From a virus, in IMG/VR virus record IMGVR_UViG_3300021062_000001: DNA of 64,000 nucleotides. The stretch is one strand, 5' to 3'. Numbering within the stretch: the first letter of the stretch is position 1; each line of letters opens with the position of its first letter. The translations under genes and the position numbers were made by a program. A model generated the notes under the pieces. That model was not told the DNA's origin, ran no database searches, and saw nothing but the letters and a program-made list of their open reading frames with translations. Shown here piece after piece: positions 4,682 through 59,638 of the stretch.

Positions 4682-4707
4682 GATCTAAAAACCGGTTTTG
4701 AGAAGGA
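4682..4707 (+). promoter_or_regulatory. palindromic box copy 1 (GATCTAAAAACCGGTTTTGAGAAGGA)
   Basis: Core AAAACCGGTTTT 4688-4699; 14 nt before ATG 4714; preceded by terminator. Confidence 0.6.
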
Positions 4708-4713
4708 ACTCCA

Positions 4714-6405
4714 ATGTCCCGAGCAGGCATGCGAAGCTCAGCGGCCGGCGGCCACGTCGCACCGTGGTGGCAGGCGAACAACCAGGGCGGCGACAACGAC
4801 GTCGTCGCCCACACGCCCGACCCGACCAAGTACCACTCGACCAGCTCGGACGGCGACCAGGCGAACAAGCTCGGGCACGGCCCCCGCGGCCTGATGGGTG
4901 CCGTGATCCCCCGGGCACGCAACGACGGCAGCTCCCGCGGCTTCGACCACAACCGCGCGGGCGTCGTCGTCGTCGACCCCAACGCCCCGGACGGCGGCGT
5001 CGTGCTCGACCTCGACAACCTCCAGAACGCCGAGACGCAGGACGCGCTCGAACAGGTCGGCTACAACGTCGGCTACGGCCGCGAGACGGACCAGGAGACG
5101 TACGCCGCGATCGCGATGCTCAGCAAGCCGATCAGCGAGGCGACGCTGGAGGACGTGACGCCCGAGTACCTGATCGACTCGGTGGCGTCCGGCCCCGTCA
5201 AGCGTGCCGCCGACCAGGCCGTCAACCAGATGCGGTCGAACCGGTACGCCCCCAACTCGTACGTCACCCCGCGGGGCGACAGCGAGGGCCGCCAGCGTCA
5301 CGACCTCGGCACCTCGGCCAACCGGCCCGTCCGCCGCCGCGTCGAGCCCGTGCGGGACGAGCCCGTCGCCCGCCCCGCCCCGCAGCGGCGGGCACCGGCG
5401 CACGCCAAGCCCGCGCCGCAGCCCCAGCGCCGGGCGGTCACCCGCCCGCAACCGACAGCCCCGGTGCTCGACGTCGAGCCCGAGTACGAAGAGAAACTCC
5501 CCTACGAAGAGGAAGCACCAGTCATGGCCAAGCAAGGAAGCGCCCGCCCCGCCCAACGCCCCGCCCCGCAGCAGCCGGCCCGCCGGCCAGCCGCCCGCCC
5601 GCAGCCCGTCGCCGAGGAGGTCGAGGTCGACCCGCTGGAGCTGCTGACCAAGCTGGCCGCGTCGCAGGGCATGAAGCTCGCCCCCGCCCGCCCGCAGCCC
5701 CGCCGCCGCGTGGCCGAGCTGCCGCCCGAGGAGGAGGCGTACGACGAGCAGCCGGAGGCGTTCGTCGACGAGGACGAGGAGATCCTCGACGAGCAGGAGG
5801 TCGACTTCCCGCCCCAGGCCCAGGCCCCTCGCCGGGCTCAGCAGCCGGCCCACCGCCACCCGCCCACGTCGGCGATCCACCGCCCCGGGACGCCCACGCC
5901 CCGCCAGGGCCGCGCCCAGGCCCCGCAGCGTCGCCCGGTGCCCCGCCAGCGGCCGCAGGAGCAGTTCTACGAGGAGGACGCCCCCGAGGCCGCGCAGCGT
6001 GGCCCGGACATGGGCGAGCTGTTCTCCGCCCTGGCCCTGTCGTTCGTCTCGGGCGTCGAGGCGGAGAAGCCGAAGAAGACCGCCGTGTTCGACCTCGGGC
6101 CGGGCGGCATCCTCCGCAAGCGGTACCACGAGATCATCCAAGGTGCGGACTGCGTGGTTCTGGTGTACGATACTCGTTACGAGGACGGCGAGCAGTGGGT
6201 GCCGCCCCAGACCGACGAGGCGTTCACCGTCGCGATCCCGGACGCCAAGAAGGCCGGGAAGCCGGGCGACCCGATCGCCGTCCGGTCGTTCGGGCTGCAG
6301 TTCAGCCTCGGCTGCATGGACGTGATCGTCCTCGTCAACGCCGAGGACGCCGCCCCCGAACACGCCCTGATGGGCGACGCCGACGAGGAGGACCTGAACG
6401 GCTGA
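4714..6405 (+). CDS. hypothetical protein with long P/A/Q/R-rich disordered middle
   Basis: 563 aa; globular-looking N and C ends; competing frame 4698..6431 is an R/P/G artefact. Confidence 0.7.
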   Translation: MSRAGMRSSAAGGHVAPWWQANNQGGDNDVVAHTPDPTKYHSTSSDGDQANKLGHGPRGLMGAVIPRARNDGSSRGFDHNRAGVVVVDPNAPDGGVVLDLDNLQNAETQDALEQVGYNVGYGRETDQETYAAIAMLSKPISEATLEDVTPEYLIDSVASGPVKRAADQAVNQMRSNRYAPNSYVTPRGDSEGRQRHDLGTSANRPVRRRVEPVRDEPVARPAPQRRAPAHAKPAPQPQRRAVTRPQPTAPVLDVEPEYEEKLPYEEEAPVMAKQGSARPAQRPAPQQPARRPAARPQPVAEEVEVDPLELLTKLAASQGMKLAPARPQPRRRVAELPPEEEAYDEQPEAFVDEDEEILDEQEVDFPPQAQAPRRAQQPAHRHPPTSAIHRPGTPTPRQGRAQAPQRRPVPRQRPQEQFYEEDAPEAAQRGPDMGELFSALALSFVSGVEAEKPKKTAVFDLGPGGILRKRYHEIIQGADCVVLVYDTRYEDGEQWVPPQTDEAFTVAIPDAKKAGKPGDPIAVRSFGLQFSLGCMDVIVLVNAEDAAPEHALMGDADEEDLNG

Positions 6406-6465
6406 GCCGCCGGGTCCGTACTGACAACTGAAGCCTGACCCTTAGCCGACACGGAGGTCGCTACC

Positions 6466-6678
6466 ATGATCGAGAAGAACGGCGCTATCACGGACGAGAC
6501 GCCCGAGGAGATCACGCCCGTCAAGGGCACGCCCGGCGGCCGGTTCTACGGCTCGCCCAGCGGGTGTGCCAAGCCCAACTGCTGCCGCACGAAGGCCGCG
6601 AACGACGCCAACAGCTCGCGGACCGACCACGCCGCCACCCGGGCGGCCGACGCGGTGGCCAACGCCGCCCGCAAGTGA
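6466..6678 (+). CDS. small hypothetical protein
   Basis: 70 aa ORF with GGAGG upstream of the ATG. Confidence 0.45.
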   Translation: MIEKNGAITDETPEEITPVKGTPGGRFYGSPSGCAKPNCCRTKAANDANSSRTDHAATRAADAVANAARK

Positions 6679-6734
6679 CTGAGTAGGACCGGCACGGACT
6701 CGCCGGTCACCGCACTCGTTCAAGGACGAACACG

Positions 6735-8663: not shown

Positions 8664-8757
8664 TTCGATTTGATACGGGCTCGGCCGAGGGTATGATTGC
8701 CCGCCGATCCAGGGCCAATTCAAGGAAGAGGTCACGCCGCGTCCGCCGCTGGCCGGT

Positions 8758-9579: not shown

Positions 9580-9580
9580 G

Positions 9581-10282: not shown

Positions 10283-10292
10283 GGTGAACCAC

Positions 10293-11363: not shown

Positions 11364-11391
11364 CTCGCTATTGTCACCCTTTTGTGGGATA

Positions 11392-11420
11392 GTTTTCAAA
11401 ACCGGTTTTTAGAAGAAGGA
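11392..11420 (+). promoter_or_regulatory. palindromic box copy 2 (GTTTTCAAAACCGGTTTTTAGAAGAAGGA)
   Basis: Core 11398-11409; 22 nt before ATG 11432 (tubulin gene). Confidence 0.6.
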
Positions 11421-11431
11421 GCTTCGCACCG

Positions 11432-12765: not shown

Positions 12766-13113
12766 ATGCGACTGCTGCTCGTGGAGGATACGCCGTGCAT
12801 CGGTAGGGCGTTCCAACGCCTACTCCAGTCTCTCGGCCACGAGGTCGAGTGGGCGCAGACGTTCTCGGCCGGCGTGGCGCTGTGCAGGGAGTGCGAGTAC
12901 GACCTCGTGCTCACGGACATCGGGTTGCCGGACGGCGACGGCATGGACCTGATCCCCACCGTGGGGCGGGTCCGTGCCGTCGTCATTTCCGCCTACTCCG
13001 ACCCCGAGCGCATCGCGGCGGCCCGAGCCCTCGGCTACCTCGACTACATCGTGAAGCCGTGCGACTTCGACATGCTCAAAGCGGTCGTCGAGCGGTGTGC
13101 CCTCGCCTCTTGA
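12766..13113 (+). CDS. stand-alone response-regulator receiver (CheY-like REC) domain
   Basis: ATG 12766 after GGAGG; MRLLLVEDT, DLVLTDIGLPDGDG (phospho-acceptor Asp), VISAYS, YIVKP (Lys). Confidence 0.85.
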   Translation: MRLLLVEDTPCIGRAFQRLLQSLGHEVEWAQTFSAGVALCRECEYDLVLTDIGLPDGDGMDLIPTVGRVRAVVISAYSDPERIAAARALGYLDYIVKPCDFDMLKAVVERCALAS

Positions 13114-15533: not shown

Positions 15534-15564
15534 CCGTCCCGGTCGGGGCGGCTCGTCTTCGTTG
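15534..15564 (+). terminator. weak terminator-like hairpin
   Basis: CCGTCCC-GGTC-GGGGCGG stem-loop followed by CTCGTCTTCGTT. Confidence 0.35.
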
Positions 15565-15590
15565 ACGCTAAACGTGCGGGCGGCGATGAT
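15562..15590 (+). promoter_or_regulatory. sigma70-like promoter candidate
   Basis: TTGACG-N17-GATGAT upstream of the 15638 gene. Confidence 0.35.
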
Positions 15591-16325: not shown

Positions 16326-16349
16326 GATCTCAAAACCGGTTTTTGGATC
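16326..16349 (+). promoter_or_regulatory. palindromic box copy 3 (GATCTCAAAACCGGTTTTTGGATC)
   Basis: Core 16332-16343; 29 nt before ATG 16373; GATC on both flanks. Confidence 0.6.
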
Positions 16350-20400: not shown

Positions 20401-21140
20401 TCGAATCGCAGCTCGGCAAGGGGAGCGACAAGCTCCTGGAGCACGAGTACGACCGGGCGAAGGTCCTGCCGGCCGGGTACGGCTCGTACATCGGCAACAC
20501 GCTGTCCCCGCTCCTCGGCCCGGCCGGGGCGATCGGCGGCATGGTCGGCGGCAAGGTGGTCGGCACCGCCCGCCGCGACGCGATCGAGAGCGAGCAGCGA
20601 GCCCGGGCCGCCGAGAAGCGCCGGGGGTGGAGCGAGCGTGACGGCGACAACGACGGGCACGTCAACGACGGCCGCCCGGACGAGCGGGACTACCGCAAGG
20701 CCGCCGGCTTCCTCGACAACGTCAAGAACACGGACTGGAAGGCCGCCCTCCCGGGCGTCGCCGGCCGGGCCGGGGTCGGGGCGGCGCTGGGCGGCGGCGT
20801 GGCCGGGATCGCCCACCTGATGAAGGGCGACGAGGAGAAGAAGCGGAAGGGCAACGGTGCCCTGGCCACGGTCGGCAAGGGAGCCCTGCTCGGCGGCGGG
20901 ATCGGGACGGGCATCGGCCTGTCCCGCGAGGTGGTCGGCCCGGCCCTGAAGAAGGGGTCGGCCGTCGACCGGCTCGTCAAGCGTGCCGCCCTCCGCGCGT
21001 TCGTGAAGAAGGCGGCCGTCACGCCGGGCCTGGCCCAGCGGCTGCGGAAGATGAAGGCGGAGAAGACCGTCCGCCAGTACCAGCCCGCCACGGACTCGAT
21101 CCGCAGCGGGGACAGCGACAACGACGTGAAGGCGGCCTGA
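17496..21140 (+). CDS. giant low-complexity protein with zincin-like metallopeptidase module
   Basis: 1214 aa; M/G/P/Q/A-rich N-terminal ~550 aa; HExxH in GVTEHELGHAIDFN with downstream WHEAQAN; Gly-rich hydrophobic segments. Confidence 0.75.
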   Translation: MSMIPGQQMGGPMGSPGMGMAPSMSGSMAFPRSLFGGMGRGMKAPPNPAAHPQAPQSQPATADVVGQMAQQAHQQNAQAKIAGFEARRNEPGLQQPSSVDPVKTAYEQYQAQLGQSQSTGSTVAQAQTGVDGLPKGQKTAAAAVTAAASTAAADFHGNPSTWAALRALPLTNKRASAVPPPAQALPADPGMGPMSTAISAPPAAPAAAAPAPVGGTPPAQPDPAMGGQAGGMAQAPAPAPAAGGMAAPAPAPGMPPVPGQAPAQMPPGTMQQDAGVQQSMGELFQEANAPDSAGDDMKFQNIVQASDHWGLERFAKTAAPGDLFDVEGDLAAMDAEQQPAVKQKPALPPVAAKPPATRPAAPATQPAGAPQGVRPPQGTPQAPKIAPGPSGSLPGASRPPVQPRPVPVQPGAGRAQPLPTAPPAAKPVPVRPPATRPAPVAPGSGMINGKPASQVLKGIPKQGSTVQDDAAEAALRTFVFGKQAWQDNGVKDRTSASGESTNVGFAHRNDDYDRGPAAWENSAKYLKHGAKGGDRRIPSSSTTKLAKARQGETTFGQDSKPGDKLAQLVKKILSKRGVKPAPGTKQAANLANEAKRQGIYQGATQAPAPAPAGRPAAATKLPPMVTGAAPAMPKAAGYGALAGVGAALGGLLGGGAYVAANPTAPSRLAAMGTDSTAFPGAVNSVGGGALLGGAGGALVEYLRRRKAEAEQPATLPGTAKAAAAVAAKKPFPATAGLLQTENDLREDEEAEKVALTVEDGGLPSRALANTVGHVGNTLGLAGPIMSLRSYVNPQGTPQRRQKHEESAGLLEAAEPDALSGTKLRLGGSDLVDDLLWKREEPGQDLPWTQQIGGRNFQNPRTGPLGKALGLISTPLAALQGNLLRAPHYNPETDVATNYWDERGVTEHELGHAIDFNTVSSEKGKGKVSDSWLGRQGRGTVRDLYRLAYGIPGVNLWHEAQANRKSWKALESQLGKGSDKLLEHEYDRAKVLPAGYGSYIGNTLSPLLGPAGAIGGMVGGKVVGTARRDAIESEQRARAAEKRRGWSERDGDNDGHVNDGRPDERDYRKAAGFLDNVKNTDWKAALPGVAGRAGVGAALGGGVAGIAHLMKGDEEKKRKGNGALATVGKGALLGGGIGTGIGLSREVVGPALKKGSAVDRLVKRAALRAFVKKAAVTPGLAQRLRKMKAEKTVRQYQPATDSIRSGDSDNDVKAA

Positions 21141-21162
21141 TCTCAAAACCGGTTTTGGGATC
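21139..21162 (+). promoter_or_regulatory. palindromic box copy 4 (GATCTCAAAACCGGTTTTGGGATC)
   Basis: Core 21145-21156; starts inside the stop codon of the 17496 gene; 41 nt before GTG 21198. Confidence 0.6.
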
Positions 21163-24619: not shown

Positions 24620-24645
24620 GATCCAAAAGCCGGTTTTTGAAAGGA
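24620..24645 (+). promoter_or_regulatory. palindromic box copy 5, variant (GATCCAAAAGCCGGTTTTTGAAAGGA)
   Basis: One-base insertion in the left arm; 17 nt before GTG 24656. Confidence 0.55.
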
Positions 24646-29691: not shown

Positions 29692-29900
29692 TCGAGATCC
29701 GACGTGACGCGGAGCTGATCCACGCCGAGCTTGTCGCCGGCGGGATGCAGGACTTCGACGTCTTCCTCTACCGGTACGCCAACGCCTGCTGTGCCCTCGA
29801 ACTCCTCCGGGAGGAGGGACGGGTGACCCGCAGCGCGTTCATGGTGTTGGCGGCCGATCCAAAAACCAGTTTTGAGAAGGAGCAACAGCCATGTGGATGA
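29673..29900 (+). CDS. small hypothetical protein
   Basis: ATG 29673 inside ORF 29484..29900; its 3' end runs through box copy 6. Confidence 0.45.
   Translation: MCTGTLIEIRRDAELIHAELVAGGMQDFDVFLYRYANACCALELLREEGRVTRSAFMVLAADPKTSFEKEQQPCG
29856..29881 (+). promoter_or_regulatory. palindromic box copy 6, variant (GATCCAAAAACCAGTTTTGAGAAGGA)
   Basis: G to A change in the core; 17 nt before ATG 29891. Confidence 0.55.
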
Positions 29901-34910: not shown

Positions 34911-34934
34911 GATCTCAAAACCGGTTTTTGGGAC
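34911..34934 (+). promoter_or_regulatory. palindromic box copy 7 (GATCTCAAAACCGGTTTTTGGGAC)
   Basis: Core 34917-34928; directly after the terminator; next start codon is 134 nt away (35063). Confidence 0.6.
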
Positions 34935-35062
34935 TTTGCCGTAGACCCGATCGGGGGATGGTGGTTAAGATGGCCTCGCTCGAAGGAGTGTCACGGCACG
35001 GATGCCCCGCCCGCGTTGGGCGGTAAACAAGGACTTCTCTTGACCGTACCAGGCCCGCAATC

Positions 35063-37166: not shown

Positions 37167-38054
37167 GTGACGACGCTGCCCGTCATCGGCGTGATGCTGA
37201 CGCAGCCGTCCCGCGAGGGCCTGGCGGTGCGGGCGATCACTGACTTCGTCAACCAGACGGTCCCCCGCAAGTCGCTGTACGTCTACACGACGGACCACGA
37301 CTACGCGATCCGCCTGATGAACCGGTTCATGCCGCAGCTCGGCACCGTGTTCGTCGTCGCGGCCCGCCCGGGCTCGACCCCGCAGGACATGCTGCGGGCC
37401 GGGCTCTCGCAGGCCCGGGAGACGATGGGGTACGTCGCCCTCTGGGACGACGACATCCGCCACCACCCGGGCCGGCTGGAGCGGCAGACCGTCCAGACGG
37501 ACGACGCGAACCGCCCCAGCCTGCTCAGCTCCGGCGTCTGGCACTTCTTCGACAGCGACGAGCTGTTCGTGTACCGCCTCGACAAGCGGCACGAGCCGCT
37601 GAAGGTGCGGCTGGTCGGCTCCACGCTCGTCTGCCGGGCCGAGCGGGTGACGGACGACCTGATCCCGGTGAAGTACACTGGCAGCCCGACGCACGCCCTC
37701 GGCATGTCGGTCGTGCAGCGGTACGACGCCGTGCGGCCCACGGACGAGTGGTGGTGGATGGTGTTCGGCGTCCGCGGCGACAACGCGGGCGGTTACGAGT
37801 TTCACAGGAAGTGGGCCACGAACAAGGACCGGTGCCCTAGCGCCGCGTGGCTCCGAGAGAACCAGGTACTCCTGCGGCACTGGCTCGGTCAGTACGCGTG
37901 GGACGTTCCCAGGCTGGACGTCTGTGGCCAGGACGGCGTGGCGTTCCAGTTCGAGCCGCCCACGCTGTGGGGTCCAGAGGTGCCGCCGGTCGGCGAGCCC
38001 GAGGGCTTCGAGCGCGTGCGGGAAGTGCTGCAAGAGGAAACCAACAATGGCTAA
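37167..38054 (+). CDS. GT2-like glycosyltransferase
   Basis: LPVIGVMLTQPSREGLAVRAITDFVNQT...ALWDDDIRHHPGRLERQ (DxD). Confidence 0.55.
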   Translation: MTTLPVIGVMLTQPSREGLAVRAITDFVNQTVPRKSLYVYTTDHDYAIRLMNRFMPQLGTVFVVAARPGSTPQDMLRAGLSQARETMGYVALWDDDIRHHPGRLERQTVQTDDANRPSLLSSGVWHFFDSDELFVYRLDKRHEPLKVRLVGSTLVCRAERVTDDLIPVKYTGSPTHALGMSVVQRYDAVRPTDEWWWMVFGVRGDNAGGYEFHRKWATNKDRCPSAAWLRENQVLLRHWLGQYAWDVPRLDVCGQDGVAFQFEPPTLWGPEVPPVGEPEGFERVREVLQEETNNG

Positions 38055-38334
38055 GAAGACCAACGCCCTCGACCCCGAGACGACGCCGAACCACCCGGAG
38101 CTGACGCTGCGGGAGGTGCAGATCGCCATCGGGATCGCCGAGGGCAAGACCTACCCCGAGATCGGCGACGCGCTGGGCCTCGGGTACGAGACCGTCCGGT
38201 CGTACGTCAACCGGCTCCGCGAGAAGACCTGCAGGCGGCGGAAGGCCGAGCTGGCCATCTGGGCGTCGCAGGAGCGGAGCTGGCTCGAACACCAACAGAC
38301 CGACCTCACCGCGAAGGGCCAGACCGATGTTTGA
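38047..38334 (+). CDS. LuxR/GerE-type HTH transcription regulator (no receiver domain)
   Basis: ATG 38047; LTLREVQIAIGIAEGKTYPEIGDALGLGYETVRSYVNRLREK. Confidence 0.8.
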   Translation: MAKKTNALDPETTPNHPELTLREVQIAIGIAEGKTYPEIGDALGLGYETVRSYVNRLREKTCRRRKAELAIWASQERSWLEHQQTDLTAKGQTDV

Positions 38335-38878: not shown

Positions 38879-39172
38879 GTGGTCGACGAGATCATCGACG
38901 TCGAGTTCGTGCAGGCCGGACCGGTGATCGTCCACGCTCACCGGTCCGCCCTCGTCTGCATCACGATCGAGAGCCCCAAACCGCCGACCAAGCAGGAGCT
39001 GATCGCCAAGGTCCTGTACAATGCCGGGTACGACCCGGTCGCCTTCGCGGCCAACCCCGCGGGCCAGATGATGATCCAGGAGTGCGTCGCCGGCCGGATG
39101 AACCGCGACGGGCTCCTGCACACGGCGAAGAACATCGCCGTGCTGGACCCGACGATCATCCGGCGTCGCTGA
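38879..39172 (+). CDS. hypothetical protein
   Basis: 97 aa; GTG start abutting the upstream stop. Confidence 0.55.
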   Translation: MVDEIIDVEFVQAGPVIVHAHRSALVCITIESPKPPTKQELIAKVLYNAGYDPVAFAANPAGQMMIQECVAGRMNRDGLLHTAKNIAVLDPTIIRRR

Positions 39173-39194
39173 TCCAAAAACCGGTTTTGAGATG
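39171..39194 (+). promoter_or_regulatory. palindromic box copy 8 (GATCCAAAAACCGGTTTTGAGATG)
   Basis: Core 39177-39188; begins at the stop of the upstream gene; 18 nt before ATG 39207. Confidence 0.6.
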
Positions 39195-42095: not shown

Positions 42096-42583
42096 CAGGC
42101 CAGGCTAGGGGCGAAAGGGGACGGGGCCGCCTGACGGTTCTCGCGGCGGATCGCCTCGTACACTTCCTTACGGTGGACCGGGACGTCGGCCGGGGCCACG
42201 AACCCGAGCCGGACCTTGTCGCCGCGGATGTCGACGACCGTGTACTCGCAGGCCGTGGGTACCTTGTACCCCTCGCCCCTGCCGGCCGCGACCGCGTCGG
42301 CGAACTTCTGCAGCTCCGCGGGCTCCACCAGCACGATCGACTCGTCCCGCTGGCGGGAGAGGACGAGGTTGCCCCCGCCCTTGCGCTCGCGGACCGGCGG
42401 CGGCTGGTTGCCCCGGGCGATGTCCTGTAGGATCTGGACGTAGAGTTCCTTGCGGTAGACCTGGTACTGCTCCGGGGCCTTGATGCCGGTACGGACCTTG
42501 TCGCCGCGGATGTCAACGACGGTGACCTCGACGTCATCGCCGATGAGCGTGGACTCGTCTCGTTGACGGGAGAGAACGAGCAT
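42092..42583 (-). CDS. csrA: tandem (two-domain, single-chain) CsrA/RsmA-family RNA-binding protein
   Basis: MLVLSRQRDESTLIGDDVEVTVVDIRGDKVRTGIKAPEQYQVYRKELY, then NLVLSRQRDESIVL...EYTVVDIRGDKVRLGFVAPADVPVHRKEVY; AAGGAG SD on the minus strand. Confidence 0.85.
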   Translation of the reverse strand: MLVLSRQRDESTLIGDDVEVTVVDIRGDKVRTGIKAPEQYQVYRKELYVQILQDIARGNQPPPVRERKGGGNLVLSRQRDESIVLVEPAELQKFADAVAAGRGEGYKVPTACEYTVVDIRGDKVRLGFVAPADVPVHRKEVYEAIRRENRQAAPSPFAPSLAC

Positions 42584-42619
42584 GATCGACTCCTTTCGAT
42601 GCAGGAAGAATCGGGAAAA

Positions 42620-42648
42620 TTGACTTCCTGACAGCCGGTAAAGATACT
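42620..42648 (+). promoter_or_regulatory. sigma70-like promoter candidate for the 42693 gene
   Basis: TTGACT-N17-GATACT in a locally AT-rich intergenic island. Confidence 0.5.
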
Positions 42649-42692: not shown

Positions 42693-44396
42693 ATGGATGG
42701 CACGACGACCGCGCAAATCTGTCTTCCGCGGGTGGAGCTGCCCCCGAGCGGACTGAACAACGCCCGCTTGGCCTTGTCGAAGCTGGGTGAGGCCCGAGCC
42801 CTCGCCGAAGAGGTGGCTTCCGCGGCTGCCGCCACGGACGTAAAACCCACCCTCGCTCAGCGTAAAGCCGGTAACTACAAGAAGGGGAAGGTCGCCATCC
42901 ATGGCCTTGTGGTCTCCGTCGAAAACCCTCGGGGCTCATACCGCGAGGGGACCGCACCGGACGGAAGCAAGTGGCGTACCAAGATGGAGCACCACTACGG
43001 CGCGATCACGGGTACGACAGGACGTGACGGCGACGCGGTCGACGTGTTCGTCGGCCCCGACCCCGACTGCGAGCTGGTGTTCGTGGTCAACCAGAACGAC
43101 CCGGCGACCGGCCGGTTCGACGAGCACAAGGTCATGCTCGGGTTCACGACCGAGGCCGACGCGCGGGCCGGGTACCTGGCCTGCTACGAGAAGGGGTGGA
43201 AGGGGCTCGGCTCGATCAAGCCGATGACCCTCGACGATTTCAAAAACCGGTTTTTGAAAGGCGACCTCACCAAGAGGGCCAAGGAAGGCGACCATGCCCG
43301 TAGCGAAGATGCCGCCGCAGAAGGTGAACCTGACCGGGAAGATCCTGCGGGGGAAGGACGGCCGCCGGCGGCAGATGGTCAGCGGCCAGCTCGTGATGCT
43401 CGACGGCCCGACGACGCCGGCGAGCAGGGCGGCGACTCCATCCTCGCCGGCCTCCCCGACGCCGCCGACCGGGAACCACCTGCTGTCGCCGCCGATGGTG
43501 ATCGCGGACGCGGACGGCCTGGCGAAGGCGGCGAGCCGGGGGCTGAAGGTGGGCGTGCTGCGGTACCCGGACGGGTCGCTGGCGGTGGTGCACGGCCTGT
43601 CGGGGAAGAACCTGCTGACGGACCGCGGCCGGATCGACATGATGGTGACGCAGGCGGGCCACGACCCGAAGCGGCTGGTGAAGTTCGGGGAGATGAAGGC
43701 GGCGGACGTGATCCGCTACCGGCGGGAGAACGCGAAGCTCGCGAACCAGCCGAGCGGGCGGATGAAGGAGGCGGACGCGGACGCTGGACCGATCTACTCG
43801 CTGGTCTCGTCGGGCCTGCTGACGAGCGAGGAGGCGATGGCGATCCTGGGGACGATCACGACGCCGACGCCGCAGACGCCGCACGGCCGGCTCCGGGCGA
43901 TGGGCTTCAAGGACGAGCTGATCGAGACGATCGTGCGGGACAGCCCGGCGTCGCCGACGATGCTGGCGTCGCCGGCGGCGGCCCCGCCGATGATCCCCAA
44001 GCCGGCCAAGGAGAGGAAGCGGCGGATCGACCAGCTCCCCGACCCAAGACCGTAGCCGTCGACCTCGACGGCACGCTCGCCGAGGAGTACGAGACGTTCG
44101 ACCCGAAGGTGATCGGCGAGCCGATGCCCGACGTCGTCGCCTGGCTCCGCAAGTTCAAGGCGACCGGGGCCGTCGTCATCATCTGGACCGTCCGCGGCGA
44201 CGACGCCCTGGTCAAGGCCTGGGCCGACAAGCACCAGATCCCGTACGACTACATCAACGAGAACCCGCACCAGCCGCCGGACAGCAGCGGCAAGCTCGTC
44301 GCCGACGTCTACCTCGACAACCGGGCGATCCGGGCGGAGGGGACGTGGGACGAGTTCGCGCCGGCGGTGCTGGAGCAACTTCAGGAGGCCGCATGA
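42693..44396 (+). CDS. open frame joining an InPase-like domain (N-terminus) and a HAD-phosphatase domain (C-terminus) through a ~260-codon off-frame-looking linker; gene structure unresolved
   Basis: N-terminus: AGNYKKGKVAIHGLVVSVENPRGSYREG...GRDGDAVDVFVGP. C-terminus: VAVDLDGTLAEE...IIWTVRGD. No stop in between and no start codon in front of the HAD part. Confidence 0.5.
   Translation: MDGTTTAQICLPRVELPPSGLNNARLALSKLGEARALAEEVASAAAATDVKPTLAQRKAGNYKKGKVAIHGLVVSVENPRGSYREGTAPDGSKWRTKMEHHYGAITGTTGRDGDAVDVFVGPDPDCELVFVVNQNDPATGRFDEHKVMLGFTTEADARAGYLACYEKGWKGLGSIKPMTLDDFKNRFLKGDLTKRAKEGDHARSEDAAAEGEPDREDPAGEGRPPAADGQRPARDARRPDDAGEQGGDSILAGLPDAADREPPAVAADGDRGRGRPGEGGEPGAEGGRAAVPGRVAGGGARPVGEEPADGPRPDRHDGDAGGPRPEAAGEVRGDEGGGRDPLPAGEREAREPAERADEGGGRGRWTDLLAGLVGPADERGGDGDPGDDHDADAADAARPAPGDGLQGRADRDDRAGQPGVADDAGVAGGGPADDPQAGQGEEAADRPAPRPKTVAVDLDGTLAEEYETFDPKVIGEPMPDVVAWLRKFKATGAVVIIWTVRGDDALVKAWADKHQIPYDYINENPHQPPDSSGKLVADVYLDNRAIRAEGTWDEFAPAVLEQLQEAA
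43236..43261 (+). promoter_or_regulatory. palindromic box copy 9 (GATTTCAAAAACCGGTTTTTGAAAGG)
   Basis: Core 43243-43254; inside ORF 42693..44396; 39 nt before ATG 43294. Confidence 0.55.
43294..44055 (+). CDS. hypothetical protein embedded in another frame of ORF 42693..44396
   Basis: AAGGAAGG SD. Very strong G at codon position 3 (GCG, CCG, ACG, CTG, GTG), unlike the GCC/GTC preference of flanking genes. Confidence 0.65.
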   Translation: MPVAKMPPQKVNLTGKILRGKDGRRRQMVSGQLVMLDGPTTPASRAATPSSPASPTPPTGNHLLSPPMVIADADGLAKAASRGLKVGVLRYPDGSLAVVHGLSGKNLLTDRGRIDMMVTQAGHDPKRLVKFGEMKAADVIRYRRENAKLANQPSGRMKEADADAGPIYSLVSSGLLTSEEAMAILGTITTPTPQTPHGRLRAMGFKDELIETIVRDSPASPTMLASPAAAPPMIPKPAKERKRRIDQLPDPRP

Positions 44397-49955: not shown

Positions 49956-50300
49956 ATGGGACAGAAACAGCACGGCGTCGAAGGCCAGACCTCGGTCCCC
50001 CCGGGACTGCAGGCCCTTTACCGCTCGCTCAAGGAGATCAAGGACAGCGCCCAGTGCGGCGTCGACAAGCCCGAGGCCGTTACGCGGATGGTCGTGCTCG
50101 ACGCGCTCATGCTGTTCGCGAAGCTGACGGGCAGGCCGCCCCGCCTGATCCACATCCCGCCCTCGCTGGAGGCCGTGCTGCAGATCGACCGGGGCCAGAA
50201 CCTGGGCATGCCGTCCAAGACGCACGGCAAGCTCCGGGAGCACGAGCTGGTGTTCACCTGCCGCCCCGTGTGGGACGCGGCCGAGTTTCGTGTAGAATGA
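49956..50300 (+). CDS. hypothetical protein
   Basis: ATG 49956 after AAGGAGG; tail of ORF 48813..50300. Confidence 0.6.
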   Translation: MGQKQHGVEGQTSVPPGLQALYRSLKEIKDSAQCGVDKPEAVTRMVVLDALMLFAKLTGRPPRLIHIPPSLEAVLQIDRGQNLGMPSKTHGKLREHELVFTCRPVWDAAEFRVE

Positions 50301-50320: not shown

Positions 50321-50346
50321 GTTCTAAAAACCGGTTTTGAGAAGTT
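50321..50346 (+). promoter_or_regulatory. palindromic box copy 10 (GTTCTAAAAACCGGTTTTGAGAAGTT)
   Basis: Core 50327-50338; 29 nt before ATG 50368. Confidence 0.6.
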
Positions 50347-52500: not shown

Positions 52501-55500
52501 ATGGGCCGCCTCGGATCTGGCATCAACATCATGGGGGATTCGGACCTCGGCATCATGGACGCGATGCCGGGGTTCGTCTCCGCGCCCATGCAGCTGCAGG
52601 CCCCGAAGCCCGTCGAGGAGGTCGAGGCCGAGCCCGAGGGGCTGCGGGCGTTCGGCGACGTGGACGCGACCCGCAAGGCGATCTACGACTCCGTGTTCGA
52701 GGCCGCCTCGAAGATGGAGCCGACGAAGAACCAGAAGCACACGCTCCGGCTGACCGGCGTGCAGTGGCAGGACCCGGACAAGTTCACGATCCGCCAGCGG
52801 AAGGAGGCCCTGCTGCGGGGCGAGACGCTCGGCCGCCGGCTCAAGGGCACCTGGGAGCTGCTCGACAACGCGACGAACCAGGTGATCGACCGCCGCGAGC
52901 AGACCGTGCTCCGCGTCCCGCACCTGACCGGGGGCGGCACGTTCGTCCACAACGGAAGCGACTACGCGCTGGGCAACCAGCAGCGGCTCCGCTCGGGCAT
53001 CTTCGCCCGCGTGAAGGACAACGGCGAGTACGAGTCGCACGTCAACGTGCTGGAGGGCGGCCCCTCGCACAAGATCCAGCTGAACCCGGAGAAGGGCGTC
53101 TTCTACGTCAACATCGGGCAGGCGAACATCCCGCTGCTGCCGCTGCTGCAGACGCTCGGGGCGAGCGAGAAGGACCTCCGCGCGGCGTGGGGCGACGACC
53201 TGTACGCCCGGAACTACCAGAAGGCGGACGGGACGGCGATGGCGAAGATCGTCGCCAAGTTCCTGAAGAAGCCGCCGGTCGACGGCACGAGCACGGCCGA
53301 CGCCCTCCGCCAGACGTTCGAGAACATGCGGCTCGACCCCGAGGTCACCAAGCGGACGCTCGGCCAGCCGTACGACCGCCTGGGCAAGGACGCGCTGGTC
53401 GCCGCGACCGCCAAGCTCCTGCGGGTCCACCGCAAGGAGGAGGAGCCGGACGACCGCGACCACCTCGCGTACCAGACGTTCCTCGGCCCCGAGGACCTGT
53501 TCGCCGAGCGGCTCCGCAAGGACCGCGCCGGCGTCCGCCGCAACATGCTCTTCAAGATCAGCGGCAAGGGCAGCCTGCGGGCGATGGGCTCCAGCCCGCT
53601 GCAGGACCAGATCGACTCGGCGATCATGTCGTCGGGGCTCGGCCAGGCCCTCGAAGAGATCAACCCGGCGGAGATCCTCGACAAGAACACGAAGATCAGC
53701 CGGATGGGCGAGGGCGGCATCCCGAGCTACGACGCGGTCCCCGACGAGGCCCGCGCCGTGCAGCCGTCGCACTTCGGGTTCATGGACCCGCTCCGCACCC
53801 CGGAGAGCTTCAAGGCCGGCGTGGACGTGTTCCTGAGCGGCAACGTCCGCAAGGGCCGCGACGGGAAGCTGTACGGCCGGTTCGTCGACGCCCGCACCGG
53901 CAAGCCGGCGTGGAAGACGCCGCAGGAGGTCGCGGACGCCGTCGTCACGTTCCCGGGGGCCGACAAGCTCCCGTACAAGCGCATCCCCGCGATGAAGAAC
54001 GGGCGGATGGGCTGGGCGACCCGCGAGGAGGTCGGCCTGGTGCTGCCGACGATGGAGCACGCGTTCAGCCCGATCGACAACCTGATCCCGCTCAAGAGCC
54101 AGCTCAAGGGCCAGCGGGCCAGCATGGCGAGCCGGATGACCACCCAGGCCCTGCCGCTGGTCGGCGCTGAGGCCCCGCTGGTGCAGAGCGGCCTGCCCGG
54201 CTCCAAGGGCGAGCGGAGCTACGAGGAGGAGTACGCGAAGCACATGGGGGCCGTCGTCGCCGACCGCGGCGGCAAGGTCCTGGCCGTGACGCCGGACGCG
54301 ATGACGGTGAAGTACGACGACGGCAAGGTCGACACGATCGAGCTGTACAACAACTTCCCCTACAACCGCAAGACGGGCATCACGCAGACGCCGACCGTCA
54401 AGCCCGGCCAGCGGTTCGAGGCCAAGCAGCCGATCGCCCGGTCGAACTTCACGGACGACAAGGGGGCCGCCGCGCTGGGGCTCAACGCCCGCGTCGCGTA
54501 CATGCCGTGGGGCGGCCAGAACTTCGAGGACGCGATCGTCATCAGCGAGGGCATGGCCAAGCGGATGACGTCCGAGCACATGTACCAGAACGGGCTGGAG
54601 GTGAACGACCGCACGAAGGTCGGCCGCAAGGAGTTCATCTCGCTCTTCCCGTCGAAGTACGACAAGGCCACGCTGGCGAAGCTCGACGATAAGGGCCTCA
54701 TCAAGCCCGGCACCCAGGTCCACTTCGGCGACCCGCTGATCCTCGCCGCCGAGGAGCGGAGCACGGCCCAGAACAAGATCCACAAGAAGGGCACGCCCGC
54801 GTTCAACGACGTGTCCGTCACCTGGGACCACCACGACCCCGGCATCGTCACCGACGTCGTCGAGGGCAAGAACGGCCCGGTCGTCCTGGTGAAGAGCCAG
54901 CACCCGATGCAGGTCGGCGACAAGATGAGCGGGCGGTACGGCGACAAGGGCGTCGTCAGCGCGATCATCCCGGACGACCAGATGCCGCACGACAAGGACG
55001 GCAAGCCGTTCGAGGTGCTGCTGAACGACCTGGGCGTCATCAGCCGGACGAACCCGAGCCAGTGGGCCGAGGCCAAGCTCGGGGCGATCGCCGCCAAGCT
55101 GGGCAAGGCGATGAAGGTCGAGGACTTCGACCCGGCGGTCGAGGACCGCGCGGCGTGGGTCGAGGAGCAGATGCGGAAGCACGGCATCCCCGACCAGGAG
55201 GACGTGACCGACCCGGTGCGGGGGACGAAGATCCCGGGCATCTCGACCGGCAACCGCTTCTTCATGAAGCTCCACCACACGGCCGAGTCCAAGGGGCAGG
55301 GCCGCGGGTCGGGCGCGTACGCCTCGGACGACACGCCGGCCAAGGGCGGCGAGACGGGCAGCAAGCGGAACTCGCTGCTGAACGTGAACGCCCTGCTCTC
55401 GCACGGGGCGACCGACTACCTGCAGGACGTCGGGGCGATCAGCGGCCAGCGGAACGAGGACTACTGGCTCCAGTTCATGCAGGGGTTCTCGCCCCGCAAG

Positions 55501-57006
55501 CCGAAGGTCCCGCTCGTGTACGAGAAGTTCGTCAACGAGCTGAAGGGGGCCGGGATCAACGTCGTCCGCGAGGGCAGCCAGCTCCACGTCATGGCGCTGA
55601 CGGACAAGGACGTCGACCACCTGGCCGGCGACCGCGAGATCGAGGTCGGCGACACGGTCGACTTCTACAACGAGCTGAAGCCCGTGAAGGGCGGCCTGTT
55701 CGACAAGACGAAGACCGGCGGCCACCACGGCAACCGGTGGGCGGCGATCAAGCTCGCGGAGCCGATGCCGAACCCGGTCATGGAGGAGCCGATCCGCCGC
55801 GTGCTCGGGCTGACGCAGAAGCGGTTCGAGGACGTGATCGCCGGCCGCGAGCCGCTGAACCCGCAGACCGGGGCGACCGGCCCGCGGGCGATCGCCGAGG
55901 CCCTGAAGACGATGAACGTCGACCGGGAGATCGCGATCGCCCGGGCGAAGATCCAGAACGGCACGAAGGCCGAGCGGGACATGGCCGTGCGGAAGCTCGG
56001 CTACCTCAAGAGCGCGAAGAAGACGGGCGTCCTGCCGGGCGACTGGGTGCTGAACCGCGCCCCGGTCCTGCCGCCGCAGTTCCGCCCCGTGAACGTGATG
56101 GGCGGGAAGAACGTACCGCTCGTCGCGGACGCGAACTTCCTCTACAAGGAGCTGTTCGAGGCGAACAAGAACCTCCGCGACATGAGCGAGCAGGTGGGCG
56201 ACGACGTCGGCGACGAGCGGCTGGCGGTGTACCACGCGTTCAAGGCGGTCACGGGCCTCGGCGAGCCGATCACGCAGAAGAGCCAGGAGAAACAGGTCAA
56301 GGGAATCCTAAAATCGGTTTTTGGATCTTCGCCGAAGTTCGGCACCGTGCAGCGGAAGCTGATCGGCTCCACGGTCGACAACGTCGGCCGGGGCGTCGTC
56401 GTCCCGAACCCGGACCTCGACATGGACAGCGTCGGGCTCCCGGAGGACCGGGCGTTCGACGTCTACAGCCGGTTCGTCGTCCGCCGCCTCCGCCGCTCGG
56501 GCATGCCGATGGCCCAGGCCCTGCGGCACGTCAAGGACAAGAGCCCGCTGGCCCGGAAAGTGCTGGTCGAGGAGATGGACCACCGGCCGGTGGTCGTCAA
56601 CCGCGCCCCGGTGCTCCACCGGTTCGGCATCATGGCGTTCCGCCCCAAGCTCGTGAAGGGCTCGGTGCTGCACGTCCCGCCGCTGATCGTGAAGGGCTTC
56701 GGCATGGACTTCGACGGCGACGCGGTGCAGTACCACGTCCCGACGAGCGAGGACGCCCGGGCCGAGGCCCTCGACCGGATGCTGCCCAGCCGGCAGCTGC
56801 TGAGCCCCGGCGACTTCAAAAGCCCCGTGCACGTCCCGGGGCAGGAGTACGTCGGCGGGCTGTACAAGGCGACGAGCGGCCGCAGCAAGCGGCCGGTCCG
56901 CTACTTCCGCAGCGCCAAGGACGTCCGCCACGCCTGGGAGCACGGTGAGGTCGCGATCGACGACGTCATCAAGGTCCTGGGCGACGCGGTCGCGGCGAAG
57001 CGGTAG
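52501..57006 (+). CDS. multisubunit RNA polymerase: beta-like subunit fused to the N-terminal (RpoC1-like) half of beta'
   Basis: Beta motifs: RAVQPSHFGFMDPLRTPES, GQNFEDAIVISE, GDKMSGRYGDKGVVS, FFMKLHHTAESK. Beta' motifs: NRAPVLHRFGIMAF and catalytic MDFDGDAVQYHVP. Confidence 0.9.
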   Translation: MGRLGSGINIMGDSDLGIMDAMPGFVSAPMQLQAPKPVEEVEAEPEGLRAFGDVDATRKAIYDSVFEAASKMEPTKNQKHTLRLTGVQWQDPDKFTIRQRKEALLRGETLGRRLKGTWELLDNATNQVIDRREQTVLRVPHLTGGGTFVHNGSDYALGNQQRLRSGIFARVKDNGEYESHVNVLEGGPSHKIQLNPEKGVFYVNIGQANIPLLPLLQTLGASEKDLRAAWGDDLYARNYQKADGTAMAKIVAKFLKKPPVDGTSTADALRQTFENMRLDPEVTKRTLGQPYDRLGKDALVAATAKLLRVHRKEEEPDDRDHLAYQTFLGPEDLFAERLRKDRAGVRRNMLFKISGKGSLRAMGSSPLQDQIDSAIMSSGLGQALEEINPAEILDKNTKISRMGEGGIPSYDAVPDEARAVQPSHFGFMDPLRTPESFKAGVDVFLSGNVRKGRDGKLYGRFVDARTGKPAWKTPQEVADAVVTFPGADKLPYKRIPAMKNGRMGWATREEVGLVLPTMEHAFSPIDNLIPLKSQLKGQRASMASRMTTQALPLVGAEAPLVQSGLPGSKGERSYEEEYAKHMGAVVADRGGKVLAVTPDAMTVKYDDGKVDTIELYNNFPYNRKTGITQTPTVKPGQRFEAKQPIARSNFTDDKGAAALGLNARVAYMPWGGQNFEDAIVISEGMAKRMTSEHMYQNGLEVNDRTKVGRKEFISLFPSKYDKATLAKLDDKGLIKPGTQVHFGDPLILAAEERSTAQNKIHKKGTPAFNDVSVTWDHHDPGIVTDVVEGKNGPVVLVKSQHPMQVGDKMSGRYGDKGVVSAIIPDDQMPHDKDGKPFEVLLNDLGVISRTNPSQWAEAKLGAIAAKLGKAMKVEDFDPAVEDRAAWVEEQMRKHGIPDQEDVTDPVRGTKIPGISTGNRFFMKLHHTAESKGQGRGSGAYASDDTPAKGGETGSKRNSLLNVNALLSHGATDYLQDVGAISGQRNEDYWLQFMQGFSPRKPKVPLVYEKFVNELKGAGINVVREGSQLHVMALTDKDVDHLAGDREIEVGDTVDFYNELKPVKGGLFDKTKTGGHHGNRWAAIKLAEPMPNPVMEEPIRRVLGLTQKRFEDVIAGREPLNPQTGATGPRAIAEALKTMNVDREIAIARAKIQNGTKAERDMAVRKLGYLKSAKKTGVLPGDWVLNRAPVLPPQFRPVNVMGGKNVPLVADANFLYKELFEANKNLRDMSEQVGDDVGDERLAVYHAFKAVTGLGEPITQKSQEKQVKGILKSVFGSSPKFGTVQRKLIGSTVDNVGRGVVVPNPDLDMDSVGLPEDRAFDVYSRFVVRRLRRSGMPMAQALRHVKDKSPLARKVLVEEMDHRPVVVNRAPVLHRFGIMAFRPKLVKGSVLHVPPLIVKGFGMDFDGDAVQYHVPTSEDARAEALDRMLPSRQLLSPGDFKSPVHVPGQEYVGGLYKATSGRSKRPVRYFRSAKDVRHAWEHGEVAIDDVIKVLGDAVAAKR
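56304..56328 (+). promoter_or_regulatory. palindromic box copy 11, variant, inside the RNAP ORF (AATCCTAAAATCGGTTTTTGGATCT)
   Basis: AT-rich island in a GC-rich gene; nearly identical to copy 3; encodes ILKSVFGSS. Confidence 0.45.
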
Positions 57007-57026
57007 CGTCAAGGAGGACGCGCACC

Positions 57027-57341: not shown

Positions 57342-57435
57342 CCGCCGCAGCGCACGGGGCTGGCGGCGGACCCGGTAGTTGTTACACTAACGGGTGAGCA
57401 CGCAAGGAAGCACTCAACACGCAAGGACGCGACCT

Positions 57436-58203: not shown

Positions 58204-58212
58204 GCAGCGACC

Positions 58213-58491: not shown

Positions 58492-58519
58492 CACCCCGTT
58501 CTCCGAAGGAGACACCCCG

Positions 58520-59536
58520 ATGGCAGCGAACGAAAGCTCGAACAAGGCCTACTACGGCAGCGGCCAGAAGTCCGTCATCAACAACAAGAACCCCCTGTAC
58601 CGCACGGGCAACGTCAACGACCCGCTCCAGGCCAACGCCTCCCCCGTCCACGTCGCCGGCGACACCTCGACCGACCAGTATTACAAGAACGGCGGCTCGA
58701 AGATGCAGCGGCGGGCGGCCGAGCCCGCGAAGTTCATCCCGGTCGACCCCCGCGCCGACTCCAAGGCCCGCCCGGCCGCCGGTGCCGCGTACACGACGCC
58801 GCTGGAGGGCGACCTCCGCCGGCCGCTGCTGGTGAAGGAGGGCCACCCCGCCGCGATCCGCGCCGCCGTCGCCCGCATCGTCGAGCTGCTGCTCGGCGGC
58901 ACGAGCCCGGTAATCGTCCACGTCGCCGACGTCGGCTTCGAGCCGGACATCCGCACGGGCCTCGACATCCGCGTCGCCCGCGAGGAGATCTCCCGCGACC
59001 AGTACCGCGACGTCCAGTTCTCCCTGGCCCCGAAGACCGGCACCGAGCTGGCCGACCAGACGTTCGGCGCGATCGACCCGGCGAGCCTGCCCGAGGTCAA
59101 GGTCGGCGAGGACCCCGAGGACGCGATCCCCGACGACATCGAGGCGTTCGTCAAGGGCAACACCGACGCGGACGACGTCGCCCCGGCCGCCCCCGAGGCG
59201 AGCCGCGTCCAGACGATCTCCGCCCCGGCCGCCCCGGCCGAGGACAACGACGACACGGACGACGACGTGACCAACACGCAGGGCTCGGACGGCCCGCAGG
59301 GTCCGGCCGGCGTCGCCGACGAGGCCCCGGTCGGCAACGTCCCCCGTCCCGAGGCCGTCAAGGCGGCCCCCGAGGCGAGCAACGAGGAGCCGGCGATCTC
59401 CACGACCGCCCCGGCGGCCGCCGACACCGACGACGAGGCCGAGACGGCCGACGAGCCGGCGGCCACGGGCGACGCCGCCCCCGCCGCCGCCGCCGACGCA
59501 CCGGCGACCGGCAAGAAGGGCCGCAACCGCCGCTGA
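58520..59536 (+). CDS. hypothetical protein with acidic disordered C-terminal half
   Basis: ATG 58520 after AAGGAG; 338 aa. Confidence 0.65.
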   Translation: MAANESSNKAYYGSGQKSVINNKNPLYRTGNVNDPLQANASPVHVAGDTSTDQYYKNGGSKMQRRAAEPAKFIPVDPRADSKARPAAGAAYTTPLEGDLRRPLLVKEGHPAAIRAAVARIVELLLGGTSPVIVHVADVGFEPDIRTGLDIRVAREEISRDQYRDVQFSLAPKTGTELADQTFGAIDPASLPEVKVGEDPEDAIPDDIEAFVKGNTDADDVAPAAPEASRVQTISAPAAPAEDNDDTDDDVTNTQGSDGPQGPAGVADEAPVGNVPRPEAVKAAPEASNEEPAISTTAPAAADTDDEAETADEPAATGDAAPAAAADAPATGKKGRNRR

Positions 59537-59560
59537 TCCTGACAGTCCGCACGCGACGAC

Positions 59561-59606
59561 GACGCACCCCGCGGACCGGCCTCGGCTGGCTACCACGGGG
59601 TGCGTC
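59561..59606 (+). terminator. terminator-like hairpin (no clear T-tract)
   Basis: 11-bp stem GACGCACCCCG / CGGGGTGCGTC with a 24-nt loop. Confidence 0.45.
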
Positions 59607-59613
59607 GTGTTAA

Positions 59614-59638
59614 GATCCAAAAACCGGTTTTGAGAAGC
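59614..59638 (+). promoter_or_regulatory. palindromic box copy 12 (GATCCAAAAACCGGTTTTGAGAAGC)
   Basis: Core 59620-59631; after a hairpin; 39 nt before GTG 59671. Confidence 0.6.

Follow-up and report, generated by a model that had tools for sequence, protein, structure and literature searches.

Regularly spaced palindromic boxes in a large phage genome encoding its own RNA polymerase: candidate operators of a dimeric regulator

A palindromic box recurs twelve times, about every 5 kb, in a 64,000-nt stretch of viral DNA (IMG/VR record IMGVR_UViG_3300021062_000001; hereafter the window) that belongs to what appears to be a virulent-type phage of ~224 kb with its own RNA polymerase (RNAP). We tentatively interpret these boxes as operators of a phage-encoded dimeric regulator gating transcription into gene blocks of ~5 kb, a reading to which we give a little less than an even chance. 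A preliminary description of this DNA had instead taken the box for the unit promoter of the phage RNAP. That proposal was right about a gene-proximal, phage-specific signal, but it is opposed by the dyad symmetry of the box, by the existence of separate sigma70-like promoters, by the overlap of boxes with Shine-Dalgarno (SD) sequences and by copies lying inside genes. A dimeric-regulator operator with a LuxR-type candidate protein, which the same description had listed as an alternative, seems better supported by the dyad, its half-sites and the presence of a helix-turn-helix (HTH) gene. The phage clade is here taken as the ‘mReC’ lineage of Weinheimer and Aylward (PMC7481178).

The core of the box, AAAACCGGTTTT, occurs nine times exactly in the window against an expectation of 0.00 from 100 dinucleotide-preserving shuffles, and twelve times when up to one mismatch is allowed (0.01 expected), in agreement with the earlier estimate of far fewer than one chance copy. 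All nine exact copies lie where they had been described, and so do the three one-base variants (24626, 29862 and 56310), except that the first had been placed at 24625. The window has a GC content of 66-76% and carries nearly all its genes on the plus strand; its AT-rich islands are few and the boxes make up most of them. On the source contig (ENA ERZ27257313 k141_2268, 224,432 bp) three more boxes flank the window, at -7805 (upstream of thyX), at -523 (inside an open reading frame, ORF) and at 68000, giving 15 boxes in 76 kb.

Information in the position matrix of the copies is confined to positions -6 to +18, and the repeated unit is an inverted repeat of 20-24 bp, (GA)TC-YM-AAAA-CCGG-TTTT-KR-GA-(TC or AG), for which the position weight matrix (PWM) gives scores on the minus strand only slightly below those on the plus strand. 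The preliminary description had made the element shorter and less symmetric than it is. The claim that all copies share one orientation holds insofar as none of the twelve is inverted, but the polarity is weak, as it resides only in the two end nucleotides of the arms: the left end carries G in 10/12 and A in 9/12 copies, the right end AG in 8/12 and TC in 4/12, and an exact upstream GATC is present in 8/12 copies and not in nine. Over all 15 copies this outer-flank asymmetry follows the direction of transcription, and the T-tract always precedes a purine, which is G in 14 of them. We then looked at how the two arms vary. Changes at the inner variable pairs (-1/+12 and -2/+13) are not compensatory, the outer arm positions vary independently, also without compensatory changes, and pair 8-21 of the alignment is unpaired in 11/15 copies. 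The 15 copies give a covariation score of 0.149, the same as the mean after shuffling; 244 of 500 shuffles reach or exceed it. RNA folds of the box are mostly between -0.4 and -6 kcal/mol with z-scores near 0, no better than shuffles, and no Rfam family matches the box. Because covariation, a stable fold and an Rfam match are all lacking, we read the box as two half-sites on duplex DNA and not as a hairpin; RNA hairpin, cruciform and terminator readings were ruled out on these grounds. A dyad with independently varying half-sites is the signature of a dimeric DNA-binding protein.

The distances between successive boxes in the window are 6710, 4934, 4813, 3481, 5236, 5055, 4260, 4066, 7084, 5983 and 3310 nt, with a coefficient of variation of 0.24 (P ~2e-5 against a random choice of gene starts and 5e-6 against uniform placement). 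An extra box had been predicted within ~2.4 kb left of the window and one was found at -523; including the flanks, intervals range from 3.3 to 8.4 kb. Without box 11 (56310), which lies inside an RNAP gene, the gap would be 9.3 kb, and since this coding-embedded copy closes it, spacing itself is seemingly under selection. The flanks of this copy match the consensus and its only core mismatch is what a Ser codon requires; the encoded peptide matches a conserved segment of Escherichia coli beta' that we take to be LKSLADMIKGKQGRFR. Spacing thus seems to outweigh nearness to gene starts, with copies forced into ORFs at 56310, at -523 and, in the closest relative, at L356:9263. Such an even spacing of ~5 kb, maintained by placing sites in coding sequence, is unusual and points to a mechanism limited by distance, such as gating, roadblocking or loading, and away from gene-by-gene control.

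Most boxes nevertheless stand close to genes. Ten copies have a start codon 14-41 nt past the end of the core, as had been described (Table 1), and these start codons are preceded by an SD; the positions reported for the other two copies, 134 nt before 35063 (box 34917) and inside the RNAP ORF (56310), were also confirmed. Two copies lie wholly inside ORFs (56310 and -523) and a third, at 43243, in the 3′ coding end of the gene for an inorganic pyrophosphatase (InPase), in its conserved C-terminal coding region, with an orthologous box at L356:15631. Some intragenic boxes are at least 700 nt away from the next gene start (56310; L356:9263). When the spacer measures at least 130 nt, the box hugs the downstream SD in 5/6 cases. 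At least five copies have an SD that begins only a few nt from the core or shares bases with the right arm, and in several it starts 0-3 nt past the core, as in GAGAAGGAGcgtgcATG upstream of thyX (-7805); the box must therefore be transcribed or overlap +1, any start site lying inside or upstream of it. This excludes classical activator positions and fits gating or repression. Class I/II activator geometry was likewise rejected, as at least five copies leave only 20-25 nt between box centre and start codon, a stretch that also has to hold the SD.

Three terminator-like hairpins said to precede boxes were recovered (-38, -26 and -43 kcal/mol; z = -6.7, -3.0 and -6.6), and two further ones precede the boxes at 16332 and 24626, so that strong hairpins (-26 to -48 kcal/mol) lie upstream of five boxes of the window. 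Close to some boxes we also found sigma70-like promoters. Extended -10 elements of the form TGnTAAGAT occur at 4649-4657, 34963-34971 and 59608-59616, and of the plus-strand matches to TA[AGT][AGT]AT outside boxes, eight in number, four fall within 60 nt of a box. At the four visible promoters the box centres lie at about +29, +27, +2 and -56 relative to the predicted start sites, and the first three would be repressor-type positions. The window and L356, its closest relative, share the block GTAGACCCGATCGGGGGATGGTGGKTAAGAT almost unchanged, while the adjoining box has drifted; the leader that follows the promoter block at 34941-34971, GTCACGGCACGGAYGCCCCGC, is also almost invariant there. The TGnTAAGAT elements represent a second promoter class for the clade, which further includes TTGAYN-N16/17-(T/G)ATGAT, often after terminators, and whose sites include 8670-8697 and 15562-15590. 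Generic sigma70 and terminator scans of the window rose only marginally above shuffles. The right arm of the box itself, TGAGAA, was dismissed as a -10 element, as it has G at the essential -11 A and transcripts starting downstream of it would lack the SD.

The box is not private to this genome. Cognate boxes are present upstream of orthologous genes in relatives, a point on which the preliminary description had made its interpretation depend, and each box-bearing relative keeps the box at orthologous positions with a palindrome of its own, always a dyad (Table 1). L356 has degenerate forms of the window's box, two of them orthologous to 34917 and 43243, and the remaining ones displaced to nearby sites, in one case within an ORF. 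Considering the 41 boxes of the window and its relatives together, an SD-preceded start follows 9-54 nt past the box at ~30. At L300:9603-9665, in the L042 genome, the usual order of hairpin and box is reversed: a stop codon, the box and then a terminator-like hairpin with a T-rich tail. Another mReC clade (L441-L495, e.g. IMGVR_UViG_3300027782_000032; L007, L010, L051) carries a perfect 16-bp palindrome, GTGGAGACGTCTCCAC, in 5-12 copies per contig inside long ORFs. There it is read in all three frames (SGDVST 25 times, VETSP 29 times, WRRLH 8 times), and is therefore a DNA-level element written into coding sequence. Similarly, GCAAAGATATCTTTGC is present in 3-5 copies per 24 kb and in three reading frames (L012, L026, L031, L036, L060; e.g. 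L026:13111), with one copy inside the RNAP gene, elsewhere than the intragenic box of the window. Scans of metagenome and genome contigs for the exact motif gave unrelated single matches and coral tandem repeats, none of them related to the window by blastn or tblastx, and a single-protein query with the 2H-SAK gene returned no loci, an alignment query being needed. Literature searches on the 12-mer, on palindromic phage-RNAP promoters and on transcription organisation in mReC phages found nothing relevant. The boxes represent the first candidate cis-regulatory code for the mReC clade, with a concrete candidate trans-factor, and the natural specificity swaps (CCGG, GTAC, ACGT, TCCGGA and others) render the protein-DNA code directly testable.

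The candidate is a stand-alone HTH protein of the LuxR/GerE/NarL type (Table 1), the only specific DNA-binding domain found among the ~60 ORFs of the window. It scores above the curated cut-off of Pfam GerE (5e-7), matches NCBIfam NarL/VisN output domains and the DNA-binding domains of NarL, DosR and VraR in the PDB, and keeps the C-terminal AIWA dimerisation helix. Its gene lies in the operon headed by the sigma70-like promoter at 34941-34971. Database homologues are few, the closest being 72% identical and encoded on the syntenic contig L356. A hidden Markov model search of the relatives' loci found the gene only in the window genome, in L356 and in contigs of L043, L042, L065 and L064, and it is syntenic in all five box-bearing relatives in which that region is represented. 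The recognition helix, ETVRSYVNRLR, is identical in the window and in L356, whose boxes are near-identical; the other four helices are ETVKSYTSRLR, ETVRTYAARVR, ETIRSILKRLR and DTVKLHLARIR, and the boxes of these genomes differ too. The dyad, its independent half-sites and this HTH gene point to a dimeric protein on DNA. A stand-alone REC domain (12766-13113) is encoded 25 kb away from the GerE-type output domain, and as a pair they look like a split NarL-type regulator; L356 encodes a 188-aa REC protein at a different position.

Table 1. Boxes, promoter elements and genes of the window (window coordinates), and boxes of relatives
Feature	Coordinates	Strand	Description
Box 1	4682..4705	+	GATCTAAAAACCGGTTTTGAGAAG; 30 nt downstream of TGcTAAGAT -10 element; core ends 14 nt before ATG 4714; right arm overlaps SD
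Box 2	11392..11415	+	22 nt before tubulin-like gene, ATG 11432
Box 3	16326..16349	+	GATCTCAAAACCGGTTTTTGGATC, nearly perfect 24-bp palindrome; begins 11 nt past -39.8 kcal/mol hairpin; ends 29 nt before ATG 16373
Box 4	21139..21162	+	Left arm overlaps TGA of 1214-aa ORF; 41 nt before GTG 21198
Box 5	24620..24643	+	Core AAAGCCGGTTTT; at 3′ end of 318-nt spacer with strong hairpins; 18 nt before GTG 24656
Box 6	29856..29879	+	Core AAAACCAGTTTT; 17 nt before ATG 29891; right arm supplies SD
Box 7	34911..34934	+	After intrinsic terminator; ~55 nt upstream of predicted start site of conserved TGgTAAGAT promoter; 134 nt before 35063
Box 8	39171..39194	+	Overlaps upstream TGA stop; 18 nt before ATG 39207
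Box 9	43237..43260	+	Within C-terminal coding part of InPase ORF; 39 nt before ATG 43294
Box 10	50321..50344	+	Heads RNAP operon; 28 nt past TAGAAT -10; 29 nt before ATG 50368
Box 11	56304..56327	+	Core AAAATCGGTTTT; inside beta/beta'N ORF; encodes GILKSVFGS
Box 12	59614..59637	+	Abuts TGtTAAGAT -10 after -42.8 kcal/mol hairpin; 39 nt before GTG 59671 (beta'C)
Extended -10, sigma70-like	4649..4657	+	TGcTAAGAT
Promoter block	34941..34971	+	GTAGACCCGATCGGGGGATGGTGGTTAAGAT; heads operon with GerE-like gene; 30/31 nt conserved in L356
-10-like hexamer	50293..50298	+	TAGAAT; provides stop codon of upstream ORF; conserved in L043, L064
Extended -10 element	59608..59616	+	TGtTAAGAT
GerE-type HTH gene	38047..38334	+	95 aa; stand-alone LuxR/GerE/NarL-type; candidate box-binding dimer
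RNAP beta-beta'N gene	52501..57006	+	1501 aa; beta fused to N-terminal half of beta'; Pfam Rpb2_6, Rpb1_2
RNAP beta'C gene	59671..62427	+	918 aa; C-terminal half of beta'; Pfam Rpb1_5
Boxes before first RNAP-operon gene			L041 TCTCAAAACCGGCTTTTAGGAAC; L004 CTAAAATCCGGAATTGAAAGG; L042 TTAGATTCTGGTTTCTAGGAG; L043 TTTTAAAAAACGTTTTTTGGAAT; L065 GTTTACAAAAGAACTTTTCTAAAC
Boxes upstream of beta'C			L064 AAAAGTACTTTT; L043 and L042 forms also there
Other palindromes of relatives			L029 TTCATAAGCACTTATGAA; L305 and L309 AAATCCGGATTT; further AAAAACGTTTTT, CTAGAWWCCGGWWTCTAG, GTTTASAAAAG-AA-CTTTTSTAAAC

According to the operator model, the box would be a double-stranded DNA operator made of two inverted half-sites, ~(GA)TCYMAAAACC, read by a homodimeric phage-encoded protein, for which the product of 38047-38334 is the best candidate. 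One site heads nearly every successive block of ~5 kb in the long co-directional array. Its usual place is ahead of the next gene's SD and past any terminator or sigma70-like promoter, and it is embedded in coding sequence where a spacer is lacking. The bound dimer may then gate RNAP entering or starting at each block; at the visible promoters it would cover the start site or lie a little beyond it, elsewhere it would act as a roadblock to read-through, and one factor could thereby time the whole array. Within this model, negative control or gating would be somewhat more probable than positive control.

Several observations weigh against the operator model. Hairpins of -20 kcal/mol or stronger lie upstream of the box in 13 and downstream in 3 of the 41 boxes (Wilcoxon P = 0.001). 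Box 34917, at about -56, would occupy an activator position. The stretch from 16 to 35 kb contains four boxes and no sigma70-like promoter, and most boxes are without a recognisable promoter to repress; in L041 the SD/ATG adjoins the box and the box adjoins a terminator, which leaves no space for a further promoter. The box-bearing L029/L366 gave no GerE homologue near the syntenic site, nor did the other mReC clades give one, and the co-variation between recognition helix and box, drawn from only six genomes, is no more than suggestive. Finally, nothing that points to a temperate lifestyle, and hence to a need for a global repressor, was seen in the ~85 kb examined of the ~224-kb genome (the ~60 window ORFs and the flanking loci), where neither an integrase nor an immunity repressor was found.

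The most serious competitor, unlikely in our view, is that the box is the core promoter of the phage multisubunit RNAP, recognised by the enzyme itself or by a dedicated specificity subunit. In the window, a single in-frame fusion joins beta to the N-terminal half of beta', catalytic domain included, whereas beta'C is a separate gene ~2.7 kb downstream; this unusual split architecture is conserved in the IMG/VR relatives found (62 loci, 40-72% identity), and a megablast of the RNAP region against GenBank phages gave no match. Two conserved RNAP-neighbour genes, 57394 and 51183, were considered as sigma- or alpha-like factors but gained no support, one being of low complexity and the other uninformative. 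Among cultured phages the nearest relative is Salmonella phage Arash (RNAP ~30% identical), in whose first 50 kb no comparable repeated palindrome was found; its virions contain beta, beta' and a sigma70-family factor (PMC10585845), and this factor, gp10, has no BLAST-detectable homologue in the DNA searched. The mReC RNAP is bacterial-type and branches outside cellular lineages, and the paper that describes it has no promoter analysis (PMC7481178). Direct recognition by the polymerase would place the start at the purine after the T-tract, with leaders of 14-41 nt, and that purine (mostly G) is as expected from T7-type initiation regions. The motif holds ~30 bits, is phage-specific and co-oriented, stands 9-54 nt before an SD-preceded start in ~30 of the 41 boxes, follows terminator-like hairpins and is the only recurrent intergenic signal from 16 to 35 kb; the contiguity of terminator, box and SD in L041 fits a promoter as well. 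Moreover, both RNAP gene clusters have a sigma70-like promoter plus a box, matching a hand-over from host to phage RNAP, and the box sequence shifts between relatives as T7, T3 and SP6 promoters do. However, dyad symmetry is conserved in every relative although RNAP-promoter complexes are asymmetric, and to our knowledge all characterised RNAP promoters have an asymmetric recognition sequence. A promoter is equally difficult to reconcile with the copies inside ORFs far from the next start (56310; L356:9263), with the stop, box, terminator order at L300:9610-9652, with the palindromes that other mReC clades carry mid-ORF in all three frames, and with the pairing of a virion sigma70-family factor in the cultured relative (PMC10585845) with sigma70-like promoters here.

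Two further explanations appear improbable. In the first, a dimeric protein would bind the boxes as sites that organise or load at the DNA level and are not primarily devoted to gene expression; they could serve genome coating or condensation, segregation with the tubulin system, or replication or recombination entry, or be strong topoisomerase sites. In a genome of 69% GC, an AT-rich site would simply be easiest to fit in intergenic spacers. The regular spacing, the copies forced into coding sequence where spacers are lacking and the shift of boxes to neighbouring positions between close relatives, with the few-kb spacing kept, are all compatible with this proposal. So are GTGGAGACGTCTCCAC and GCAAAGATATCTTTGC, dispersed in ORFs and three frames, and the tubulin homologue and PHROG ‘topoisomerase’ encoded by the phage, the latter of which received no typing from Pfam, NCBIfam or PDB sequence searches. 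It accounts poorly, though, for boxes that hug the downstream SD in long spacers, that lie downstream of hairpins and whose outer-flank asymmetry always follows transcription. Pfam scans of the window ORFs found no ParB-type domain, neither this nor a comparable gene was detected in the ~85 kb, and the palindromes of other clades may be unrelated systems. The second, just as doubtful, is that every mReC lineage has its own palindrome of 16-24 bp every 5-15 kb, bound by a co-evolving dimer, located in spacers in GC-rich genomes and elsewhere in ORFs in all three frames; the dimer of the window would be a sigma-region-4-like GerE protein acting as a promoter-specificity or loading subunit of the RNAP. 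If true, initiation or loading would depend on a dyad-symmetric signal of a kind not known from any bacterial-type polymerase.

By far the least probable is an RNA-level module in the 5′ leader (an A/U-rich translation enhancer, an endoribonuclease site or a site for an RNA-binding protein), akin to the 5′-untranslated-region module of the preliminary description: CCGG|UUUU fits the RN|WUU preference of RNase E, and the box adjoins the SD, is an A/U-rich island in a very GC-rich transcript and punctuates long polycistronic arrays like the RNase III sites of T7, but it has no stable or covarying structure, its dyad is conserved across relatives though a single-stranded site needs none, copies lie deep in ORFs without a nearby start codon, and box 34917 is upstream of its promoter and so outside that leader.

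Some observations concern the surroundings of the boxes. Involvement of GATC (Dam) was rejected, since GATC is neither depleted nor enriched (ratio 1.09) and L356 does not conserve it. Just left of the window (L360:6153-7049, window ~-3200 to -2300) lies a gene for an N6/N4 DNA methyltransferase (Pfam N6_N4_Mtase, 3e-39), and GATC flanks 11/15 boxes; a link between the two would be purely conjectural. GCGC is strongly depleted across the window (217 observed, ~600 expected, ratio 0.36), which may reflect restriction-site avoidance; other 4-bp palindromes are near expectation. The InPase ORF that contains box 9 (42693-44396) has no in-frame stop before 44396, reads through the gene at 43294-44055, whose own frame is a different one, and continues into a HAD/PNKP-like segment. 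Its L043 orthologue stops at a TGA formed by the right flank of its box, and a homopolymer (A5) difference, a frameshift or a genuine overlap are possible explanations of the long ORF. The only minus-strand gene of the window (42092-42646) encodes a tandem CsrA. Hairpins that resemble CsrA sites, short and with a GGA-containing loop (GGCACGGAKGCC), are found at 59657-59670 (SD of beta'C) and 34994-35007 (leader past the 34966 promoter), but the pattern GCACGGAKGC is not enriched window-wide and the idea of a CsrA site was dropped. Besides the genes already mentioned, the window encodes ribonucleotide reductase, glycosyltransferases and the REC-only protein.

Dispersed operator sets of global repressors are known from plasmids and phages: the KorB OB sites of RK2 (12 copies of TTTAGCSGCTAAA), the stoperators of mycobacteriophage L5, the C1 operators of P1 and the conserved inverted repeats of phiC31. 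They share with the boxes a dozen or more copies of a high-information, element-specific site across the replicon, mostly in short intergenic spacers beside gene starts or stops. L5 stoperators also have a polarity that follows transcription, and KorB sites are palindromes with AT arms and a GC centre, bound by an HTH dimer. In contrast to these sets, the boxes reside in an apparently virulent-type phage of ~224 kb with its own RNAP, in which no integrase, immunity repressor or ParB was seen within ~85 kb; their spacing is unusually regular, their candidate binder has a GerE-type HTH and, unlike the asymmetric L5 and P1 sites, they are dyads. NarL, DosR and lux-box sites are of the same size class as the box dyad. 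Operators of the LuxR/NarL/GerE/DosR type (lux box, NarL 7-2-7, DosR box) are inverted repeats of 18-20 bp with independently varying half-sites, as the boxes are, and the element encodes a GerE-type HTH with a C-terminal dimerisation helix. Cellular members of the family act at few promoters, from about -40 or overlapping -10/+1, whereas the candidate stand-alone output domain would serve, by extrapolation from the 15 sites in 76 kb, an estimated ~40 per genome, the majority lacking a visible promoter.

Promoter sets of phage RNAPs (the 23-bp promoters of T7/T3/SP6, and those of phiKZ and AR9) resemble the boxes in being conserved, co-oriented motifs before genes, often after terminators, in phages that encode the RNAP, with a motif specificity that diverges between relatives; they are asymmetric, whereas the box is a dyad. 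The non-virion RNAPs of phiKZ and AR9 work without sigma on short AT-rich motifs at -10 to +1 (PMC7598289), unlike the mReC enzyme, which is bacterial-like and whose cultured relative packages a sigma factor. In halovirus HF2, AT-rich motifs in repeated intergenic elements were conjectured to act as promoters, and the report on them says in its title that the repeats carry promoters (PMC8707807); the HF2 elements differ from the boxes in being archaeal TATA/BRE-type repeats of 29-58 bp, neither dyad-symmetric nor regularly spaced. Taken together, the boxes are similar to dispersed operator sets already known and to operators of the LuxR type, and the system is new in its host lineage, in its regular spacing and in its family-wide swaps of specificity.

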